Shown: positions 1 to 64,000 of the stretch, piece after piece
Position numbering within the stretch: position 1 is the stretch's first letter
Layout: the number at the start of each line of letters is the position of its first letter
Source: Escherichia phage LF82-41
Direction: 5' to 3' (one strand)
Sequence record: PV660463
DNA: 64,000 nt
The notes under the pieces: generated by a model
Seen by the model: only the letters and a program-made list of their open reading frames with translations
Told to the model about the DNA's origin: nothing
The model's database searches: none
Made by a program: the position numbers and the translations under genes

Positions 1-102
1 ATTAGCATACATACCATAATTTTCTTCCATCATAGCATTCAGGCGTTTGATATGATTAATGTGGGCTTCAATAGCATCAATCTGGAGTTGTTTAAGATTC
101 AT
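1..102 (-). CDS. hypothetical protein, partial (ATG at 100-102, C-terminus beyond window start)
   Basis: Open frame from ATG at 102 to position 1 (34 codons, [14 protein letters not shown]...); TAATG overlap with upstream ORF stop. Confidence 0.35.
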   Translation of the reverse strand, partial: MNLKQLQIDAIEAHINHIKRLNAMMEENYGMYAN

Positions 103-563
103 TAGTAAAGGTCCTCAGAGTAAAGTTCTTTTTCATTACCACCACGTTCAATACGTACTTGTCCAGCGTAAGTTGCAATAATCATTGCTTCTTCACGTGT
201 CCAATAATTACTATATTGGTCAATAAACCCTTGGTCATCATCACAAACTTGTTGAGTAACTAATTGAGGTTTAACTACATCTAAAACTTCTGCCATATCT
301 TTAGAATAATGACGAGCACCTGGAATAATAAGAGTTCGTCCATCTTTTAATTTAAAACGGTTGGCTGCGCAGACAATTCGTCGTTGATACTTTTGGTTTT
401 CATCCCAATACAGAGTCTGCCAACAGATTTCAGGAACTTCGTCTAAAACATTTTGTTCTGTATATTCACCACCGTAAGAAGCTAATTTAGCAGCCAGACT
501 TTCCGGAGTCTCACGCGACAAAGCTTTATCTAACAGAGCTAAACGTTCTTTAAAAGTTTTCAT
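102..563 (-). CDS. hypothetical protein (153 aa)
   Basis: ORF track; compact minus-strand packing; no motif recognised. Confidence 0.55.
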
Positions 564-889
564 TTAAACCATTCCTTAATACGTTGCCAAATAGATTTTT
601 GTGCTTGTTTATTTACACCAATCGAACGAATAACCGGTTGTGACTGCTGGTATTCTTTATAATCTTCTTTATAGATTTCGTAAGCTGCATCAACAAATGA
701 ACTGATCGCAGCCATGTAGTTTTTACGAAGGCCAAATGGCGCGTCATTATTTTCACGAATAACCGTATATTGGCCTGCTTTAATCTTTACAATTGTCCCT
801 AAATAAGCCCCGTGGTACCAAATATCCCATCCTTCCTGAGTAGGTTCTGCACATTTACGAAGTTCGTTAATAATATTCAGCTTATTCAT
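560..889 (-). CDS. hypothetical protein (109 aa), motA-adjacent
   Basis: ORF track; 4-nt overlap with downstream ORF; position equivalent to T4 motA.1/arn region. Confidence 0.55.
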
Positions 890-899
890 TATGTATTCC

Positions 900-1532
900 T
901 CACAGTACGTTAGTTACAAGGGTAATGATTTCTTTGGACACATTAGGGAAGTCAATGTAAGTATATTTACCACCGATCTTAATCTTAACATCATTTTCAA
1001 GAGAAGTAAACAGCTTTGATTCAGTTTCTGACATGTTGTATGCAAAGATTCTAAGAGCGCCATCTCGACGAATTTCGATCTGACGAATGCCTAGAACTCG
1101 TTTAGCGAATCGAACTTCTAAGTTACTACGGTTTTCACCAATTTCTTTAACTTCAACTTTATCTTTAATATTTTCAAAAACAAAGTTTGCTAATTCATGC
1201 ATTTCAGGAGTAACTCCACGTGCTTTTCTGGTGTTACGTTTCTGAAGAAGTTCTGGAGCATTTTCTTGGGCAAAGAGGTCTGCAGCTTTTTGGATAATAT
1301 CCATTGCTTCGCCGGTTGCCACAAGTCCATCACCGGATTTTTCGACTAAACCTTTCTTAATCAATACACCAATGTTAGAGTTAACAACTGATGCGCTGTA
1401 TTCTGCTTCCAGAGCTTCACGGACATTGGCAGCAGTGGTGAAGTTGTTCTTAATGATATAAACCATTATTGCAGCAGTTTTTTCATTCAGAGCGTTTTCA
1501 GAAGCTTTGATGATGTAAGTAACTTTAGACAT
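900..1532 (-). CDS. motA: MotA middle-transcription activator
   Basis: 210 aa; N-terminus MSKVTYIIKAS...NIGVLIKKGLVEKSGDGL matches remembered T4 MotA; followed by gene 52 as in T4. Confidence 0.85.
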   Translation of the reverse strand: MSKVTYIIKASENALNEKTAAIMVYIIKNNFTTAANVREALEAEYSASVVNSNIGVLIKKGLVEKSGDGLVATGEAMDIIQKAADLFAQENAPELLQKRNTRKARGVTPEMHELANFVFENIKDKVEVKEIGENRSNLEVRFAKRVLGIRQIEIRRDGALRIFAYNMSETESKLFTSLENDVKIKIGGKYTYIDFPNVSKEIITLVTNVL

Positions 1533-1566
1533 TTTATTTCTCCAAATTAGTATTTGTTTTGATAGG

Positions 1567-1598
1567 TCTATAATATCATGTTTGAAGCAAAAGTAAAC
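1567..1598 (-). promoter_or_regulatory. early-type sigma70 promoter (GTTTAC-N17-TGaTATTAT), family 1
   Basis: minus-strand GTTTAC at 1593-1598, TATTAT at 1570-1575, conserved AGACCTATC downstream; upstream of motA. Confidence 0.55.
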
Positions 1599-1635
1599 TT
1601 TATTTTGGGCTCTTTTTAAAAAGCCCTGGTAAAAT

Positions 1636-1851
1636 TTACAAACTCATTTCTTTAATAAGGCCAATAAGTTTTGCCTTTTTAGAACGAAGCTTTTCTAAAT
1701 GACGTCCATTTGAACCGCGAACCACTAAAGAATTGATTTCAACTTCTAAGAAATTTAATTCTTCAACAAGTGCTTTACGAGGAGCATTCATACCAGGTTT
1801 AACTTTACCGAAACGAGTAGTTGTGTTTTGGGTTAATTTCATTTTAGACAT
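1636..1851 (-). CDS. hypothetical small protein (71 aa)
   Basis: ORF track; own family-1 promoter upstream. Confidence 0.5.
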   Translation of the reverse strand: MSKMKLTQNTTTRFGKVKPGMNAPRKALVEELNFLEVEINSLVVRGSNGRHLEKLRSKKAKLIGLIKEMSL

Positions 1852-1887
1852 TTTATTTCTCCAATTTGGTTGTTTTGTTTTGATAGG

Positions 1888-1919
1888 TCTATAATATCAC
1901 GTTTGAAGCACATGTAAAC
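1888..1919 (-). promoter_or_regulatory. early-type promoter, family 1
   Basis: GTTTAC (1914-1919) - N17 - TATTAT (1891-1896), AGACCTATC downstream. Confidence 0.5.
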
Positions 1920-1930
1920 TGTTTTGTGAG

Positions 1931-1963
1931 AAAAAAAAAGCACAAAAGGGAGCTTCGGCTCCC
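1931..1963 (-). terminator. rho-independent terminator after gene 52
   Basis: GGGAGC-ttcg-GCTCCC hairpin (1948-1963) followed on minus strand by T-run (plus A-run 1931-1939). Confidence 0.6.
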
Positions 1964-2039
1964 TAATCATGTTTGTCCAACCAATACAGCCAAATCACTA
2001 GTGCAGCTATTGCACCGAGAAATCCTAAGGCTAGGGCAC

Positions 2040-3365
2040 TCAAAGTGCCTCCAAGTCTTTAGTGTACTCTGTCACAACATCAGTAGACTTCCAATACTCA
2101 TTTTCTTCTTTCTTAGCTTTAGCTTCTTCTGCTAGTTTACGTGCTTCGTCGGAAGTGATATGGAAGATGTTAAGACCTACCAGTTTATCGACATGTTCTT
2201 TATACATTTCGATTTGTGCTAGCTCTTCAGTCAAAGCTTTACGAGTCTTGCCCTGAATCACGATTTCACCGTTGATAACTTTTTTGATGAAGTGTGCCTT
2301 AGCAAAAGCAAGTTTAAATGCTTTTTCGGATTCAAGGATTTTGTTGTCAATACGTTTCTGAACGTAAGTCTTACGGACTTCAACAAAATCTTTGATTAAG
2401 TCCACTACGTTATCGTAGACAGCTAATTTACCCTTTTCATTAATCACTGTGATGTTTTGTGAACGACGTTCGATGAGACTAAAATCTTTCATGATTTTTT
2501 CATGACGTAGCTCTTCATCATCAGGAAGCGAGTATTCTTTGCGGAACTTCACCTTAAACCCAAAGCCGTGTTCACCGCAATCATCTTCCCATGAGATTAG
2601 ACCTTTGTCTTCCAACGGGTCAAGAACTTTACTCACATACGTTTCACGGTCGAATTTATATGGGATTTCAGTTATCTGCATTTGAGTACGAGATGTGAAC
2701 TTGTATGTTCCGTGAATCTCATAACGCCCATCAACTTCATGCACTTCACCATGGAATTCCGGGAATTCAACTTTTGGCTTAGTGACATTTTTACCTTGAA
2801 GAGCTTGTAATACAGCCTTTTTTACCGATTTAAAACTATGAGGCAGAATATTTGTTGCGTAACCGGTTGCAATACCAGATACACCATTCAAAAGAACTGT
2901 CGGAATAATAGGAAGATAGAATTTTGGTGGAATATGTTCTTTATCTTCATGAGCTGGAGCATATTCAGTATCTTTATATACGTTATAGAAATTTTTACTT
3001 ACACGAGCAAAAATATAACGAGATGCTGCAGCTTTTTGGACTGTTCTAGAACCAAAGTTGCCTTGACCATCTAACAGTGGATAGTTGTTGTTCCATGTGT
3101 TAGCCATTAATGCACCTGCATCTTGTGCAGAAGATTCACCATGGTGATAACCTAAATCTGCGACACCGCCTGCAATTGACGCAAGTTTATGAAATTTTTC
3201 TTTATTACCACGAGCTAAATCTAACGCACGATGAACCACAAAACGTTGAACCGGCTTAAATCCATCAATCATATTTGGGATTGCACGGTTTTCAACGGTG
3301 TACATCGCATATGCTAAGGCTTCGTTATCAATAATACTTTTTAGATTACGAGAATTCAATTGCAT
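2040..3365 (-). CDS. 52: DNA topoisomerase II medium subunit (GyrA-like)
   Basis: 441 aa; motif IPNMIDGFKPVQRFVVH typical of type IIA topo A-subunit; T4 gp52 size and position. Confidence 0.9.
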   Translation of the reverse strand: MQLNSRNLKSIIDNEALAYAMYTVENRAIPNMIDGFKPVQRFVVHRALDLARGNKEKFHKLASIAGGVADLGYHHGESSAQDAGALMANTWNNNYPLLDGQGNFGSRTVQKAAASRYIFARVSKNFYNVYKDTEYAPAHEDKEHIPPKFYLPIIPTVLLNGVSGIATGYATNILPHSFKSVKKAVLQALQGKNVTKPKVEFPEFHGEVHEVDGRYEIHGTYKFTSRTQMQITEIPYKFDRETYVSKVLDPLEDKGLISWEDDCGEHGFGFKVKFRKEYSLPDDEELRHEKIMKDFSLIERRSQNITVINEKGKLAVYDNVVDLIKDFVEVRKTYVQKRIDNKILESEKAFKLAFAKAHFIKKVINGEIVIQGKTRKALTEELAQIEMYKEHVDKLVGLNIFHITSDEARKLAEEAKAKKEENEYWKSTDVVTEYTKDLEAL

Positions 3366-3369
3366 ATTT

Positions 3370-3510
3370 TCACCATATTAATGAACGAATATCCATTATA
3401 ACATCTGAAATGAAAAGCACTACTTGGATTAGTCCAAACATCACACCGTAGTACAGAACCGTAAGCAACAACAAGAGCCCGAAGGCTCCTGCTAAGATTT
3501 TCTTAATCAT
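3370..3510 (-). CDS. small hydrophobic protein (46 aa)
   Basis: Manual translation MIKKILAGAFGLLLLLTVLYYGVMFGLIQVVLFISDVIMDIRSLIW; ATG overlaps stop of upstream small ORF; below ORF-track size cutoff. Confidence 0.35.
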   Translation of the reverse strand: MIKKILAGAFGLLLLLTVLYYGVMFGLIQVVLFISDVIMDIRSLIW

Positions 3511-3656
3511 TACTCGCCTTTTAACACGTTAATAAGAGCTAAGACCGCTAAGGTGCCTTGTGATACGGCCTGTTGAAATACTGTTGTTTCGCCTGTAACT
3601 AAAGTGTTAACGAATAAAAACGACCAACACAGCAATGCAATAATCCATGATACCAT
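3510..3656 (-). CDS. small membrane protein, possible ac (acriflavine sensitivity) homolog (48 aa)
   Basis: Manual translation MVSWIIALLCWSFLFVNTLVTGETTVFQQAVSQGTLAVLALINVLKGE; size and position between 52 and ndd match T4 ac. Confidence 0.4.
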   Translation of the reverse strand: MVSWIIALLCWSFLFVNTLVTGETTVFQQAVSQGTLAVLALINVLKGE

Positions 3657-3708
3657 TTTAATTACCTCAAAAATAAATTAAAGGCCCAACTTAATAGGCC
3701 CGTATAAA

Positions 3709-4155
3709 TTAGTAACTCTGTAGAATGAATTTGAAATTATCAGCCAGAAGACGGTTCATTTCAGTGAGTGTTTGATATTCTGATGTATGATTGCGAGTGA
3801 ATGCCAGAGCCAATTGTCCTTTACCATAACCGGTGGTCAGGGGTTTCATGTTCTTAGCTGCAACAAAGATTACATCATATTCAATATTGTTAGTACCCAT
3901 GGTACGGGCTAGTTGCGAACGGCCTTGACGAATGTGAGAAAGAATTGCATCCAACCCTTGTTTAGAACGTTGACGTCCTACAAAGAATCGTGCTGCTACT
4001 TGTCGCCAATCAGATGAACCTTTAACAAAGAAGTAAAAACCTTCACGAGAACGAAACTCTTTAGAAACTTCAGAACCGTATTCGCCATTACGAACTACTG
4101 CAACAACTTCACCGCCAACTGCCAGAAGGTCTTTACGAGTTAAATATTTGGACAT
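3709..4155 (-). CDS. ndd: nucleoid disruption protein Ndd
   Basis: 148 aa; C-terminal [39 protein letters not shown] matches remembered T4 Ndd. Confidence 0.8.
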
Positions 4156-6793: not shown

Positions 6794-9007
6794 TTATTTA
6801 GCCGCTTCCACGGCCTTCATGAATTTAACGATTTGAGCGACCTGTTCTTTTGAAAGAGTACCACGTCGTCCCATGTATTCTGACACAATATGATAATTGG
6901 TTTCGAATTCAATAACCATTTTATCATCATTATCGTAAGCATTATCTTTAAGCTTATCGAAAATTTTAGCACACAATTCTAACTTCTTATTCAGGTCTGT
7001 ATTAGTAGCACCTGCGAATCGATTCCATCCCCAGCGATTATTTACTGTGGAGAGTTTTGCAAAGTCTTTACTGATTTCTTTGTTCTTAGAGCTAAAATAC
7101 TTACTAAGGAAGTTAAGCTCTTCATTACGAGTAATATGGTTTAGATAGGGCTGTGCTCTACGACTTGGTGATACATACTCATCATAATCCACTTTATCGA
7201 TTAGCGTAATATAGTCATTAATTGATTTTTCGAACAAGCATTCTACTTCACCAAGTTTACGAACTTTCTTAGCAATCTGTGGACGAACTACAGTGAACTC
7301 TTTAATACCTGACAAATCAGCAATACGAGTCAAGAAATTGGAGTCATAGTTCAACCAACCTTTATCTGCATCAAGACATTCAGCATTAGAACGATTACGA
7401 ACTATAGCATAACCTTGGATTTCATCTGCTTCACTTGCCGGAATAAAGAGGTCTTCTGATACCCAAACATCGTTTTCATTCTTAAAGAATCGATGAGCAC
7501 TTGGCGATTTAGGACGAGGCTCATTAGTTCGTTTCCTGACTTCAATCCATGGCTTAACGATTTGTAAAAGCTCTGAAGTCTTGTACATGTTAATGTTGTC
7601 GCCATCAAAGATAACTTTAAGGCGTTCCAGAAGTTTCATTGCATCTTCGTCTGTAGGGTCAACGAATAGTACGCTTTTACCAAAACCGCGTGGAACTTTA
7701 CCAGTTAATTTAACCTCGTCTTTAGACATTTCAATTGAATTAAGAGCTCGCATTAATGGAACGCGTCCCTTAACGTCGTCAATAACAATTTCAACGTTTT
7801 TAATGTTAATGCCAATCAGACTGTTAATTGAAATGGTTGATGATGAGCTACCACTTTCACGAATACGACGAAGACGAGGGGATTCAACGATATCGTATAC
7901 GACACCAAGATTACACCACTCAGGCCCCATTTTAAAACGTTTGTACAACTCAGAATAAGTTAGTTGTTCTTTAGAGTATTTCAGTGATTCAATATTAGAC
8001 CCAGCCTTTTCCATGTATTTACGAGCGGTATAGCCAAGAGAATCAATTTCACGGAACACATGACGCGGGTATTTACAATCAATCCATTTCTTAGAATCTT
8101 CAGCAAATAATTTTGCATCAATTTCTGCAACACGTTTATGGATATTTGCTACTGTACGTTTATCAAATGACAATGCTTCACGAGACGGGGCTACATCTAG
8201 TTCACCCATAGGGAATTTAATATAAGCTGTAGTGCATCGTGTCATCATCCATGTTTGTTCTTTAATAACACTTCCGATTGGATATACAATACCACCGTAA
8301 ACAGCCATGATATTACCGCGTTCACCCCATGGAGCTTCCTTGGCCAAATATACATCGTCAAATTCAGGAAAGTATTTAATATCTTTAACACCACGAACTT
8401 CTGCAATATCACCTAGAGGACGCATAACATAAGCAATTTCAGATGCGAACTTTTCAAAATCTTCCGGGTTAACCGGTACAACTACTTCTACACCCGTACG
8501 GTCATCAGGACCCATCTTATCTACAAAGGTCGGCTTAATCTGTGGACCTGTGTCATCTTGGTAGATTACGTAACCACGAACTTCACCGTTGTGATAAGAC
8601 GTAAGGTTAAACGTATCGGTATATGCTAATGGAGCTTTAGAGCCGAGTCCGAATCCACCAATGAAATCGTTACTCGATGTTTTAGTTGAAGCAAAATATG
8701 AGTTATAAATTCCTGGCTCTTCGTCATTACCTCGAATGGTGAAATCGCTCATACCAGGACCAAAGTCTCGAACTACAAAGCGCGGGTCTAACCGACCTGG
8801 AGCTTGAACAATAAACTTATCAGTGCAACCGTTAAGAATTTGTCCATCGATACAGTTTGTAATTAATTCACGTACACAAGCCAATTCTTTGTTTGTATAA
8901 AGGTCATTAGACAAAATCTTATAAACTTTGCTATTGCCTTGAATAGTGAATGCTGTGCTCTTACCACCTGAACCAATAATAGTTTCTTTAGCCGTTTCAA
9001 TAATCAT
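6794..9007 (-). CDS. rIIA: rIIA protein
   Basis: 737 aa; N-terminal GHKL-type ATPase-like region; T4 rIIA size and gene order. Confidence 0.85.
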   Translation of the reverse strand: MIIETAKETIIGSGGKSTAFTIQGNSKVYKILSNDLYTNKELACVRELITNCIDGQILNGCTDKFIVQAPGRLDPRFVVRDFGPGMSDFTIRGNDEEPGIYNSYFASTKTSSNDFIGGFGLGSKAPLAYTDTFNLTSYHNGEVRGYVIYQDDTGPQIKPTFVDKMGPDDRTGVEVVVPVNPEDFEKFASEIAYVMRPLGDIAEVRGVKDIKYFPEFDDVYLAKEAPWGERGNIMAVYGGIVYPIGSVIKEQTWMMTRCTTAYIKFPMGELDVAPSREALSFDKRTVANIHKRVAEIDAKLFAEDSKKWIDCKYPRHVFREIDSLGYTARKYMEKAGSNIESLKYSKEQLTYSELYKRFKMGPEWCNLGVVYDIVESPRLRRIRESGSSSSTISINSLIGINIKNVEIVIDDVKGRVPLMRALNSIEMSKDEVKLTGKVPRGFGKSVLFVDPTDEDAMKLLERLKVIFDGDNINMYKTSELLQIVKPWIEVRKRTNEPRPKSPSAHRFFKNENDVWVSEDLFIPASEADEIQGYAIVRNRSNAECLDADKGWLNYDSNFLTRIADLSGIKEFTVVRPQIAKKVRKLGEVECLFEKSINDYITLIDKVDYDEYVSPSRRAQPYLNHITRNEELNFLSKYFSSKNKEISKDFAKLSTVNNRWGWNRFAGATNTDLNKKLELCAKIFDKLKDNAYDNDDKMVIEFETNYHIVSEYMGRRGTLSKEQVAQIVKFMKAVEAAK

Positions 9008-9312: not shown

Positions 9313-10413
9313 TTACGCTGTGAAGATTTTATCCCACATCGCAACAACTGCATCTCGGTTATACTTCTTCCATACTGCTTCAGCACGTTTAACTCGAGCT
9401 TCGTATGTGTCAGTGAATTCTAATACAGCTTTTGTGTAAAGCGCAACTACTTCTTTCTTAGGAGTAGAGGAATCAATTTCTACACGCACAGTATCTGGGT
9501 CGTATTCGAATGTCGCGTGCGGATAATCCTTAAAAACTAACTGAATCACAGGGACACCTTTAGAGATGGCTTCAATAGAACTATTCTCTACCGTACCCGT
9601 GTCAGGACACGTATTGATAAGTGCTTTAGCTGTTTTAAGACGTTCCATGATTTCACTGTGTGGAGCATCAATAATAACAGGATACTTAGCCGGCGGTGCC
9701 CATTTACTAGGACAGTATCCTGCACCATTTTCGCCTAGTGCTTTAATCGCTTCAAGAGCAACATCAGTACGACGCATTTTAGTGTCATAACGTTGTGCAC
9801 TAATAATCAGATCAGTCGCCGGAAGAACTTCAGGTTTATCATTCAAACAAATAACCGGATAATCTTCGGCTTCAAACAACGGATTTGCTCGCCAATAATC
9901 ATAATCAATTTTGCCAGTCAGACCTGAAGTCATATAACAATATTTGCGTTCAAATTCACGGAAGGCTTTAGTAGGAGCATAACTCTTACCACCGTTCTTA
10001 TGAATTTGAATAGTCTGGTCCCAAATTTGAACAATGCCACGAGATACCGGTTCAAATGGTGTTGCCATAAAATTCTTATGAACTTTAGAGAGACCTGCGT
10101 CTTTAATTGCCTGAACGGTTAGTTTGGTCGGTTCCATTGTAACAACGAAATCGTACTCATTAATGCCGGCTAGTTCAACAATCTTACGAGCCATAGTATA
10201 ACTCATACCTAGACTGAATTTAGTCAGATGACCAACAGGATGATGATTAACCTTCCAGTCACCAAACGTGTCATTATCAAAGCCGATATAATCAATATCA
10301 GCACCGATGGACACAAGATATTTCAATACATTTAAATGTACTGCTTCAAGACCACCTTGTACACGTTCTGGGTTAAATGGGACTGCGCGAGATGGGATAA
10401 ACATAACTTTCAT
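9313..10413 (-). CDS. GT-B fold glycosyltransferase (GT4-like), candidate DNA sugar transferase
   Basis: 366 aa; N-terminal MKVMFIPSRAVPFNPERVQGG.E resembles GT4 N-terminus; C-terminal TGTVENSSIEAISKGVPVI resembles EX7E donor-binding motif; occupies the T4 gene 60/mobA slot. Confidence 0.55.
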   Translation of the reverse strand: MKVMFIPSRAVPFNPERVQGGLEAVHLNVLKYLVSIGADIDYIGFDNDTFGDWKVNHHPVGHLTKFSLGMSYTMARKIVELAGINEYDFVVTMEPTKLTVQAIKDAGLSKVHKNFMATPFEPVSRGIVQIWDQTIQIHKNGGKSYAPTKAFREFERKYCYMTSGLTGKIDYDYWRANPLFEAEDYPVICLNDKPEVLPATDLIISAQRYDTKMRRTDVALEAIKALGENGAGYCPSKWAPPAKYPVIIDAPHSEIMERLKTAKALINTCPDTGTVENSSIEAISKGVPVIQLVFKDYPHATFEYDPDTVRVEIDSSTPKKEVVALYTKAVLEFTDTYEARVKRAEAVWKKYNRDAVVAMWDKIFTA

Positions 10414-61283: not shown

Positions 61284-62285
61284 TTATTTCAGTAAAGTAA
61301 CTTCCGAGATTTCTTCCCAACCATCTTTATCAGTTGAAATAAAATCTGCTACATAAAGAGCCGTACGTAATGATACATTGCGAAGACGAGATACGTTAGC
61401 CTTCATCCAGGACAATGCTTTGTACGTTTCAGCATCAGTCAAGCCACGTTTCTGCATCATGTCAGTAGATAATATTACATCTTCAACTCGAACCATAATC
61501 TCTTCATTAGAGTGTACTCCAAGGTCGAGATACACTGAACGAGATACTAAAGCTTGAAGGTGCGGAGCAAGTTTCGAACCGCGTTCTAACTCTTTATCAA
61601 TATCAACGTTTGTAATGAAAACGATAGTACCTTCAAACTCAAATTCTTTATCGATACCCTTATCATCAAGATAAGATGACGCAGTGCTCCAACAAACTTT
61701 GCGTTTATCGCCGGTATCTAATGCGGCTTTAAGAAGGTTCAGGATGTCCATATCTGAGAATACGTCAACGTCATCGATTAAGAGAACGCTGTCTGCATCA
61801 CGGTTGAGCCAAAGTTGTTCGTAAAGGCCAATACCAGAGATTTTACCATTAATGCTTTTGTATTTGATGAAACCATTATCATTAGCATTACTAAGTGCTT
61901 TATCCAGAGAATACGTCTTACCAATACCAGCTGCACCTGAAATAATGAGTGAACGAATTTTGCCATCGATAATGCCATTCGTCATCATGTTCATTACTTT
62001 AAAGCGTTTGTTGATACGAGTTTTCATATCTTCAGTGCTTTCAACAACTGCAACTGGTGATGTCTCAACTCCTTCCATTACGATGTCTGATTTGAAGACC
62101 CATACTCCACGTTCAGAACCATCAATCATAACGAAAATTTTACCGTCACCTAAGTGGGAACATTCAGGATTAAGCTTTGCCGGGAACCATGTCTTTGTGG
62201 CAACATAAGAACCAGAGATTTCGTTATTACGATAAATACCTTTTTTGATTTGAACGTTGAACATTTTATTCTCCAATTTACTCAT
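61284..62285 (-). CDS. P-loop ATPase (333 aa)
   Basis: Walker A ISGAAGIGKTYS and Walker B-like VLLIDDVDV. Confidence 0.55.
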   Translation of the reverse strand: MSKLENKMFNVQIKKGIYRNNEISGSYVATKTWFPAKLNPECSHLGDGKIFVMIDGSERGVWVFKSDIVMEGVETSPVAVVESTEDMKTRINKRFKVMNMMTNGIIDGKIRSLIISGAAGIGKTYSLDKALSNANDNGFIKYKSINGKISGIGLYEQLWLNRDADSVLLIDDVDVFSDMDILNLLKAALDTGDKRKVCWSTASSYLDDKGIDKEFEFEGTIVFITNVDIDKELERGSKLAPHLQALVSRSVYLDLGVHSNEEIMVRVEDVILSTDMMQKRGLTDAETYKALSWMKANVSRLRNVSLRTALYVADFISTDKDGWEEISEVTLLK

Positions 62286-62340: not shown

Positions 62341-62377
62341 AAAATATTTTAACCCCCTAAAGGGACCCGAAGGTCCC
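62341..62377 (-). terminator. rho-independent terminator
   Basis: GGGACC-cgaa-GGTCCC hairpin then T-rich tract on minus strand. Confidence 0.5.
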
Positions 62378-62382
62378 CACAT

Positions 62383-62649
62383 TTACTTATCGCACTTAGC
62401 AACATAATTAGGCATATCACAGAATACGGAGCGTGTAACTACTCGACCCTTTGACCATGCTTCAGTTGCTTGTCCTGCCGTGCTATTAATATAGCTTGAT
62501 TTAATGTTCTCAATACCCTGAGAATGTGATGCATTTACCGAACCATTTGAAGGCCCGGAAGACTGGCTACCACCAGCTCCTGCACCCGTGGTAGCACCAA
62601 CAGAGAACGCCATCATTACTGCGAATAAACCAATTACTAATTTTTTCAT
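62383..62649 (-). CDS. small secreted protein with signal peptide (88 aa)
   Basis: MKKLVIGLFAVMMAFSVGA signal peptide; Gly/Ser-rich linker; two Cys. Confidence 0.5.
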   Translation of the reverse strand: MKKLVIGLFAVMMAFSVGATTGAGAGGSQSSGPSNGSVNASHSQGIENIKSSYINSTAGQATEAWSKGRVVTRSVFCDMPNYVAKCDK

Positions 62650-62680: not shown

Positions 62681-63670
62681 TTATTTATAGTAAGAATTAT
62701 GATTTTCGAGATAGACTTGCTCAAGGAAATCATCCCAGAAACTCATATCTACTTTTTGTTGCATACCGTTCTTAGCGGCTTGTTCTGATGCTTGTTCAAC
62801 TTGGTCAACGATATCTTCTAGGAATTCTTGTACAGTTTTAAATGTATGTTTACCAAGCTTGACATCGAGAATAAATGGAGCATCCTGAAGCGGGTAAACC
62901 AGGTCGCCAGTTTTGTAAATTTCCAATAATTGAAGTCCACCACGACATGCATGACTCAATGCTTTCCAGTCAATACCTTCGTTAGCTTCTGCCTTACGAG
63001 CACGTTCACCATAGTTCTCTTCCAGTTTAACCAGGATGGCATTGAACTCTTTATTGGTTAACGTATCTTGGAATTTACGGTCCAACAGATTATAGAATGT
63101 TTGCTTACCTGTTTTCTCGTTTTCGGTTTCAACCCATGAAGCAAATTCACCTACAGGCAGAACATTCTTCATATGTGATAAACGAATTACTGCACCATTA
63201 TCAAAGTATTGTCCCCATTCATTAGAACGTTTAAGGGCTTGACGAAGAACAGCCAGTCGAGAACCCTTGACACCGTATTTAGAAGCTTGCTTACGGACAT
63301 ACCCTAAATAAGATTTCATGTTAGTGGTATAGAAACGAGACCTATTATCTTGAATATATTTCCATACATCAGGCAAATCAGATTTAACTACTAGACTTTG
63401 TGGAGTGTGAAGCATATCTAATGCGACGGTTTCACCATCCGCAGCTAGTTTAAAGAAATATTTGAGACTATACAACTCATGGTCTACGTCGTCTTTTGTG
63501 TTCTTAGAAGATGTGTTATTCGTGTTCTTGCTCATGTGTTCTTTAACGTTACCGGTCAAGATATCACGAGCATGAGGGACATAAATTTCTTTAAAATCGA
63601 CGTCAGATTCAGGAGTAGACGTTCCATAAAGGTGGCTACCAAAGTAGCTTTTCATAATTGTTTTCATCAT
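62681..63670 (-). CDS. Pol-beta-type nucleotidyltransferase-like protein (329 aa)
   Basis: N-terminal GSHLYGTSTPESDVDF fits the GS...DxD minimal NTase motif. Confidence 0.5.
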   Translation of the reverse strand: MMKTIMKSYFGSHLYGTSTPESDVDFKEIYVPHARDILTGNVKEHMSKNTNNTSSKNTKDDVDHELYSLKYFFKLAADGETVALDMLHTPQSLVVKSDLPDVWKYIQDNRSRFYTTNMKSYLGYVRKQASKYGVKGSRLAVLRQALKRSNEWGQYFDNGAVIRLSHMKNVLPVGEFASWVETENEKTGKQTFYNLLDRKFQDTLTNKEFNAILVKLEENYGERARKAEANEGIDWKALSHACRGGLQLLEIYKTGDLVYPLQDAPFILDVKLGKHTFKTVQEFLEDIVDQVEQASEQAAKNGMQQKVDMSFWDDFLEQVYLENHNSYYK

Positions 63671-64000
63671 TTAGCCTTATATTCAAGAGTAGGACAGACT
63701 TTTTCTTTACGAGCTTTAAGGTATTCACCTATTAATGATTTCTTACGTTCAATAGGCTCAAGTCCATTTTTAATTCGTTCTTGGTTTTGCGCAATGAGCT
63801 CAATTTCTTTATAATATTTTCTGTCGTTATATTTGTCTAACAACCAAGACGGACCAATTACCAACCCGGTAGCAATAAAAGCCATGACTGCTACAATTAA
63901 AATGCCTACACCAATTGAGGCTGGAACTAATGTCCATAGACTGCTAAAAACAAAGAATTTAGTTAAAATTTCGTGGCCAAAGATTGTGACTGCTGCTAAA
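63667..64000 (-). CDS. membrane protein, partial (N-terminus beyond window end)
   Basis: Frame stays open from 63885 to window end; hydrophobic N-terminal region. Confidence 0.4.
   Translation of the reverse strand, partial: LAAVTIFGHEILTKFFVFSSLWTLVPASIGVGILIVAVMAFIATGLVIGPSWLLDKYNDRKYYKEIELIAQNQERIKNGLEPIERKKSLIGEYLKARKEKVCPTLEYKAK

Follow-up and report, generated by a model that had tools for sequence, protein, structure and literature searches.

The RlaP family of nucleotidyltransferases (NTases) was named by Burroughs and Aravind for its association with RNA ligases, as cited in PMC12776372 and PMC7824862, and RlaP and RNA ligases were reported to have mirrored distributions in a comparative study of jumbo phages (PMC7824862). 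A match of phage nrdC.11 orthologues to the nucleotidyltransferase group COG3541 was noted in 2006 (PMC1524935), and the NrdC.11 protein of phage T4 was later placed in a separate sequence similarity network (SSN) cluster, cluster 5, and described as being of unknown function (PMC12776372). Here, we analyse a minus-strand gene located towards the end of a 64,000-nucleotide stretch of Escherichia phage LF82-41 (sequence record PV660463; this whole stretch is referred to below as the window). On sequence grounds, this gene is the Mosigvirus orthologue of T4 nrdC.11 and a 'long' member of the RlaP family.

The biochemistry of RlaP has been described in a December 2025 preprint by Carruthers, Fatma and Huang, in which enzymes from Pseudomonas were reported to add one to two nucleoside monophosphates (NMPs) to the 3'-OH of RNA, with deoxynucleoside monophosphates also being accepted (PMC12776372). 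These enzymes do not label DNA or protein, prefer Mn2+ and, when given a nicked tRNA mimic, act preferentially on its 5' half (PMC12776372). RlaP was found to partly restore aminoacylation of a tRNA short of one anticodon-loop nucleotide, acting before ligation, and its 3'-OH product is accepted by 5'-phosphate ligases of the Rnl/Pnk-pathway kind; it was proposed by these authors as an antidote to 'smart' nucleotide-excising ribotoxins such as RloC (PMC12776372).

Family assignment, catalytic residues and predicted fold

The window represents a Mosigvirus (RB69-like T-even) genome with 98% identity to E. coli O157 typing phage 3, in which the corresponding product is named 'nucleotidyltransferase' by RefSeq. 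The gene comprises an ATG-to-stop open reading frame (ORF) that coincides exactly with the coordinates of the initial annotation, which had named no strand, and encodes a protein of 329 amino acids with the N-terminal sequence MMKTIMKSYFGSHLYGTSTPESDVDFKEIYV, and a protein with 100% identity is already present at NCBI (bas47_0200). Its closest described counterpart is T4 NrdC.11 (AAB26971, record U76612), with which it shares 78-80% identity over its full length (100% coverage) and the same map position, at odds with the statement in the initial annotation that no T4 counterpart came to mind. Homologues were identified by tblastn in 1519 phage records, 1448 of these at a coverage of at least 80%, including phages of Escherichia, Klebsiella, Aeromonas, Acinetobacter, Vibrio, Stenotrophomonas and Caulobacter. 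The gene is therefore not the sporadic accessory element of a variable region that it had been taken for: it is widely conserved among T4-like phages, and only its immediate flanks vary. Its placement at the distal end of the nrdC cluster was correct.

The assignment of the encoded protein to the RlaP family is based on a Pfam match (PF10127, 'RNA repair pathway DNA polymerase beta family') with a score of 49.0 bits, compared with a gathering cutoff of 23 (E 8.4e-13), and on a full-length match to PHROG 388, 'nucleotidyltransferase' (E 4.1e-126). The PF10127 assignment was also precomputed for all of the close relatives listed (120/120). When 1.84 billion representatives of 50%-identity clusters were searched exhaustively, 3287 relatives were retrieved at E≤1e-3, of which 757 at E≤1e-30. 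A bare NTase motif is weak evidence: among the ORFs of at least 60 amino acids in the window, there are eight matches to a loose pattern (G[GS]-x9-13-D-x-[DE]) and a single one, in this gene, to the strict form (GS-x10-DhDh). The nucleotidyltransferase call is safe because of the profile evidence, i.e. Pfam, PHROG 388 and the 3287 cluster representatives. NCBIfam returned a sub-threshold match to MntA, confined to the GS..DxD segment, and a sequence search of the PDB, performed with the single sequence as well as with a 145-sequence profile, returned no meaningful match.

The gene has thus already been catalogued, as nrdC.11, as a PF10127 member, as a RefSeq 'nucleotidyltransferase' and as an RlaP member named in the preprint. 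In many GenBank and UniRef records (e.g. those of phages moha, mobillu, AV109, ESh15 and JK36), this NTase carries the label 'thioredoxin'. This label appears to be an error that has spread from the gene name nrdC.11, the true thioredoxin gene nrdC being a different gene, located ~6 kb away.

Members of the polymerase beta (Pol-beta) superfamily are characterized by the signature hG[GS]-x9-13-DxD followed by a third aspartate, and three aspartates are strictly conserved in the RlaP family (PMC12776372). Direct reading of the sequence revealed the motif GS-x10-DVDF, with ten residues between S12 and D23 (the initial annotation had given nine). Conservation was assessed in an alignment of the query and 144 full-length representatives (34-52% identity), in which G11, Y132 and R243 are invariant. 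S12, Y15, G16, S22, D23, D25, N57, D61, D63, D85, Y124, Q128, R223, D234, K236, H240, P260, K271 and G273 are conserved in at least 95% of the sequences; S12, D23 and D25 reach 99%, D63 at least 98%, and D234, K236 and H240 98-99%. A broader alignment (A3) combined distant phage and plasmid homologues with canonical short RlaPs (19-28% identity; 68-236 bits on PF10127), and its invariant columns are G11, S12, G16, S22, D23, D25, D63, G123 and D234. A weak hhalign alignment to a canonical RlaP likewise pairs the GS...DxD...D positions, with D63 placed opposite an aspartate of that protein.

The invariance of D23, D25 and D63 across A3 indicates that the carboxylate triad is present, with D63, which lies on a predicted β-strand, being the probable third catalytic carboxylate or metal ligand as judged from the alignments and the model. 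The call of a Pol-beta-type nucleotidyltransferase made in the initial annotation is thereby borne out by PF10127, PHROG 388 and the three invariant aspartates, and the triad, whose absence would have spoken against that call, persists in alignment down to 19% identity.

An AlphaFold2 model built on the 145-sequence alignment (mean predicted local distance difference test score 94.5, predicted template modelling score 0.86) consists of an α/β core (strands 3-10, 24-31, 45-49 and 62-68), an insert, and a helical C-terminal domain which closes with a long helix at residues 309-328. The insert (residues 146-218) is hypervariable, with 38% identity to T4 and two four-residue indels, compared with 89 and 92% identity in its flanks. 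It is absent from short canonical RlaPs (~250 amino acids), and this β-rich insert is the reason that the NrdC.11 subtype exceeds short RlaPs by ~75-85 residues. The most conserved motif of the helical domain, D234-R243, presumably forms part of the cleft for the nucleoside triphosphate (NTP) and RNA. Among solved structures, the best Foldseek matches were kanamycin nucleotidyltransferase (KNTase), 3c18 and HalB (E ~5e-3, template modelling (TM) score 0.25-0.36), none of which is close, while strong matches among predicted viral structures were again to phage 'nucleotidyltransferases'. The protein is a self-contained two-domain enzyme, and neither a minimal toxin-antitoxin NTase nor a cGAS/DncV-like nucleotidyltransferase (CD-NTase).

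Linkage to RNA repair and the proposed gap-filling role

As the Pfam match is partial and the characterized enzymes derive from another SSN cluster, the genomic linkage of the 'long' subtype to RNA repair was determined for its own relatives. The closest plasmid homologue (Asticcacaulis, 37.6% identity, E 1e-45) is located directly downstream of Hen1- and Pnkp-encoding genes and upstream of a canonical RlaP gene, and a Deferribacter homologue is found 4 kb downstream of RtcB. When a single genome of each prokaryotic species was scanned for the DWKAxSHAxR motif, 156 relatives were obtained, from which 80 cellular loci were retained (33-52% identity). Genes for Pnkp/Hen1, RtcB, T4-type Pnk or Rnl1 were present within 8 kb at 15 of these 80 loci, and a canonical short RlaP gene was located immediately downstream on the same strand at 23 of the 80 (bacterial or metagenome-assembled) loci. 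The union of both, i.e. a short RlaP and/or a repair gene, amounts to 32/80, with many of the contigs being short. A particularly compact arrangement was observed on a 4-kb contig (L016, positions 62-3803), in which the NTase, an NT5C-like protein, Pnk (kinase plus HAD phosphatase), a 143-amino-acid ORF and a T4 Rnl1-type ligase are encoded on one strand. This contig is binned as Bathyarchaeota, and the cassette that it carries is possibly viral.

Pfam scans of 106 immediate same-strand neighbours at the cellular loci identified RlaP (16), HD_4 (5) and AAA_33 (4), followed by PNKP_ligase, Metallophos, HD and Beta_elim_lyase (three each, the last not being a repair gene) and by RtcA and Ro60/TROVE (two each). 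The pairing of a long with a short RlaP gene is recurrent and is sometimes found inside Hen1-Pnkp operons; an example is the pair WP_338736464 and WP_338736463 of Asticcacaulis pASDW145_1, and stretches with such a pair include L017, L020, L025, L029, L037, L048, L062, L067, L071, L076 and L089. HD_4- or HD-domain proteins adjoin the NrdC.11-like gene at five to eight cellular loci (e.g. L022, positions 7561-7989), and a Ro60-like gene was observed ~5 kb from the NTase gene in an Ochrobactrum phage. The association with RNA repair thus holds for the relatives of the NrdC.11 'long' subtype, and not by adjacency in the phage itself. Phage NC_041863, which is 98% identical to the window, does encode Rnl1, a polynucleotide kinase and a second RNA ligase, at a distance of ~80 kb from nrdC.11.

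Based on sequence and on analogy with the Pseudomonas enzymes, this long RlaP probably adds one to two nucleotides to the 3'-OH of RNA, as an auxiliary gap-filling step of T-even RNA repair. The G11-S12 loop and residues D23, D25 and D63 would bind the NTP together with two divalent metal ions (Mn2+ for the Pseudomonas enzymes), while the helical C-terminal domain, with its D234-WKAxSHAxR243 motif, and the insert would form a cleft for the RNA 3' end. The addition of one to two nucleotides onto the 3'-OH would be template-independent. In the proposed pathway, a host anticodon nuclease of the RloC type would cut a tRNA and take out a nucleotide, after which the phage polynucleotide kinase/phosphatase would heal the ends, the cyclic phosphate being removed by Pnk. 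The NrdC.11-type enzyme would then put back the lost nucleotide and Rnl1 or Rnl2 would seal the tRNA, such that repair would succeed despite the removed base. A counter-defence or RNA-modification role, as raised in the initial annotation, is plausible for this protein.

Several observations weigh against such a gap-filling role. The Pfam alignment is limited to residues 4-138 of the protein, corresponding to positions 20-145 of a 249-position profile, and the hhalign comparison with one canonical RlaP is weak (probability 24%, E 8e-4), covering only the N-terminal 87 columns. The family biochemistry derives from a single preprint and from enzymes of SSN cluster 1a, not cluster 5, and the authors of that preprint point out that most products would be incorrect if NMPs were added without selectivity (PMC12776372). 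A literature search on nrdC.11 and phage RlaPs returned mentions in genome comparisons but no functional experiment. No RNA ligase or Pnk gene adjoins the gene in this phage, in T4 or in three distant phages (Ochrobactrum, Vibrio and Caulobacter). Furthermore, nrdC.11 is located within a T4 block that can be deleted (PMC9825161). In the viable genome-reduced mutant T4_7t1 (OL964745.1; L003, positions 2773-3120), mobD is deleted and nrdC.11 is reduced to its last 39 codons. The viability of T4 without most of nrdC.11 fits an accessory role and gives no phenotype. In this mutant, the residual nrdC.11 codons are joined to the reading frame of mobD.1.

Among the alternatives, an anti-defence or signalling role, as raised in the initial annotation, for an NTase with targets other than RNA ends is quite unlikely, whether the enzyme would generate an oligonucleotide or nucleotide signal (e.g. 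HalB-like, protein-primed oligo-dA) or would nucleotidylylate a protein or small molecule in the manner of MntA, DrrA or KNTase so as to disarm a host system. The structural likeness to such enzymes, as determined by Foldseek above, is at the superfamily level only. Moreover, PADLOC returned no defence match, MntA scored far under its cutoff, and the membrane-protein gene next to nrdC.11 in this phage is not conserved, T4 carrying mobD there and its MobD.1 being unrelated. The characterized RlaPs left protein and DNA unlabelled (PMC12776372), and the cellular relatives adjoin RNA-repair genes, not defence effectors.

A second alternative, an enzyme for tRNA 3'-end repair or maturation, would rebuild trimmed CCA tails of phage or host tRNAs instead of filling anticodon-loop gaps; we judge this to be very unlikely. 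The protein belongs to the same superfamily as the CCA-adding enzymes, and HD-domain proteins, which are companions of CCA enzymes in bacteria, occur among the neighbours at the cellular loci, but no match to CCA-adding enzyme families was obtained in Pfam or NCBIfam. T4 tRNA precursors without an encoded CCA rely on the cca enzyme of the host, and this speaks against an efficient CCA activity of the phage. In favour of CCA repair, species with the size of full-length tRNA are labelled by RlaP in total E. coli RNA, and no more than one to two nucleotides are added (PMC12776372). However, PfRlaP discriminates little between NTPs and, with annealed tRNA halves, extends the 5' half at its 3' end in preference to the acceptor-end fragment (PMC12776372).

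The least likely of these alternatives is general RNA tailing, in which short 3' tails on host or phage transcripts would alter the stability of these transcripts as a function in host takeover or mRNA turnover: RlaP takes single-stranded 3'-OH RNAs, can use any of the four NTPs and, in total RNA, labels species of rRNA and tRNA size (PMC12776372), and the gene is part of the T4 early-gene block with annotated early promoters upstream, yet addition halts after one to two nucleotides, nicked-tRNA mimics are favoured (PMC12776372), and the genes associated with the family in genomes encode enzymes of healing and sealing rather than RNases or degradosome factors.

Returning to gap filling in RNA repair, the hypervariability of the insert and the frequent long/short RlaP pair in bacteria suggest, as a matter of speculation, a specialized recognition role. 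The 'long' RlaP could be functionally distinct, with residues 146-218 acting as a recognition module for particular damaged tRNAs or ends that co-evolves with host anticodon nucleases; in bacteria, it could work with the downstream short RlaP, with, for instance, the RNA being selected by one enzyme and the nucleotide by its partner. We regard this extension as unlikely, yet if true, such a division of labour would explain how the correct base is obtained from an apparently unselective nucleotide adder. T-even phages represent the classic RNA repair model, in which Pnk and Rnl1 act against PrrC, and a phage step that restores a nucleotide would, if true, extend repair to RloC-like, base-removing nucleases. 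As it stands, the finding amounts to routine annotation, and its remaining value is that of an experimental lead.

Flanking genes and feature coordinates

The coordinates of the gene, its domains and its motifs are listed in Table 1. Due to the tandem start codons, database entries of both 329 and 328 amino acids exist. The overlap of these codons with the TGA stop of the upstream gene suggests translational coupling. This upstream minus-strand gene extends from position 63667 to beyond 64000 and thus runs off the window, where it is listed as ORF 63667..63885; the full gene is contained in L001 (positions 9368-9841). It encodes a protein of 157 amino acids with two hydrophobic segments, assigned to PHROG 944 ('membrane protein') and without a Pfam match. 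As a conserved partner of the NTase, this protein was ruled out, as it is unrelated to T4 MobD.1 and T4 carries mobD at that position.

Table 1. Coordinates in the window of nrdC.11, its domains and motifs, and an adjacent hairpin
Feature	Position	Strand	Basis
Complete coding sequence, T4 nrdC.11 orthologue, RlaP-family (PF10127) Pol-beta-type nucleotidyltransferase	62681..63670	-	ORF list, Pfam, PHROG, T4 identity
ATGATG, two candidate start codons	63665..63670	-	Read from sequence; overlaps TGA stop of upstream membrane-protein gene
Residues 1-145, NTase α/β core and first helices	63236..63670	-	AlphaFold2 strands; holds the whole Pfam RlaP match; 89% identical to T4
G11-S12-x10-D23-V-D25-F26, hG[GS]...DxD signature with first two catalytic carboxylates	63593..63640	-	Read from sequence; conservation
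D61-V-D63 on strand 62-68	63482..63490	-	D63 invariant in A3, β-strand in AlphaFold2 model
Residues 146-218, helix and β-meander insert (strands 177-184, 188-195, 198-201)	63017..63235	-	AlphaFold2 model (insert ~146-205), alignments
Residues 219-329, C-terminal all-helical domain	62684..63016	-	92% identical to T4
D234-W-K-A-L-S-H240-A-C-R243, most conserved motif of the helical domain	62942..62971	-	Conservation in 145 relatives and A3
Terminator-like hairpin 3' of the 88-amino-acid ORF downstream of nrdC.11	62351..62367	-	Consensus match only

Downstream of nrdC.11, the nrdC.10 orthologue is encoded on the same strand (61284-62285; 77% identity to T4), followed by the nrdC cluster, endonuclease VII and nrdD. 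An 88-amino-acid ORF (minus strand, 62383-62649) is located between nrdC.11 and nrdC.10, and its product, with a signal-peptide-like N-terminus and a Gly/Ser-rich region, belongs to PHROG 2243 (function unknown); in T4, a terminator and an early promoter are the only annotated features between these two genes. The nrdC.10 product belongs to PHROG 1250 (function unknown) and displayed weak, sub-threshold AAA/P-loop matches, including a Walker A sequence, GAAGIGKT. A functional partnership of nrdC.10 with the NTase was ruled out, since it adjoins the NTase gene only in T-even relatives, and neither in distant phages nor at the 80 cellular loci, and since the T4 terminator and promoter also separate the two genes.

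A scan of nine neighbouring proteins for known domains yielded the weak AAA match of nrdC.10, DUF7203, DUF7235 and a y05I-like protein, the rest being without a match. A promoter scan returned two candidates, compared with 5.2 expected from shuffled sequence and thus without excess, no RNA family was detected anywhere in the window by Rfam, and a repeat search revealed nothing notable.

Comparison with known nucleotidyltransferase systems

Two of the compared proteins are KNTase, i.e. ANT(4'), an enzyme which modifies aminoglycosides and thus small molecules, and the uncharacterized NTase-like protein 3c18. The query shares 8-10% identity with these at a TM score of ~0.3 and matches no corresponding Pfam family; membership of the KNTase family was rejected, as there was no family-level sequence match. 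HalB of the Hailong system (9dbh/9dbj) differs from the query in its size (217 amino acids), its tyrosine-primed oligo-dA synthesis and its HalA channel partner, with 15% identity between the two proteins. No HalA-like partner was present among the nine neighbouring proteins, and no relation to HalB at the sequence level was detected with the PADLOC models.

The initial annotation had likened the protein to a minimal NTase fold and had suggested a search for a paired HEPN or HD partner and for CD-NTase or KNTase relatives. With MNT-HEPN (type VII toxin-antitoxin) systems, the query shares the GS...DxD motif, with sub-threshold matches to NTP_transf_2 and MntA limited to residues 9-26. In contrast, it has three times the size of such NTases, lacks an Rx4-6H motif in its own helical domain and is not adjoined by a HEPN gene. 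The minimal NTase MntA (~100-150 amino acids) was accordingly ruled out, as NF047752 scored 13.1 bits against a cutoff of 60 for a 329-amino-acid protein that possesses its own helical C-terminal domain and has no HEPN partner. Neither a HEPN nor an HD partner was present among the nine neighbouring proteins scanned. A CD-NTase or cGAS-like NTase of the cyclic-oligonucleotide-based anti-phage signalling system (CBASS), or another defence NTase, was likewise ruled out, given that no PADLOC family matched at E≤1 and no such Pfam family was detected.

The characterized RlaPs of Pseudomonas, PfRlaP and PaRlaP (PMC12776372), share the GS...DxD...D triad with the query, whose match to the family profile lies above the gathering cutoff. 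The PfRlaP crystal structure is described as an N-terminal NTase domain and a helical C-terminal domain with a terminal helix that packs back onto the NTase domain (PMC12776372); the α/β core, helical C-terminal domain and final long helix of the AlphaFold2 model may represent the same two-domain plan. Differences concern their SSN cluster (1a, as opposed to cluster 5 for NrdC.11) and the match of the query to the Pfam model in its N-terminal half only. RlaP relatives are found in RNA-repair operons, whereas the phage gene is not adjacent to a ligase gene.

T4 NrdC.11 is the orthologue of the query. The two genes differ in their surroundings, as T4 carries the homing endonuclease gene mobD upstream, where this phage has the 157-amino-acid membrane-protein gene, and as the 88-amino-acid signal-peptide ORF is present here and not in T4; the proteins differ most in the insert (38% identity). 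The T4 gene, between mobD and nrdC.10, and the gene studied here nevertheless occupy equivalent positions, each upstream of nrdC.10 on the same early-gene strand.

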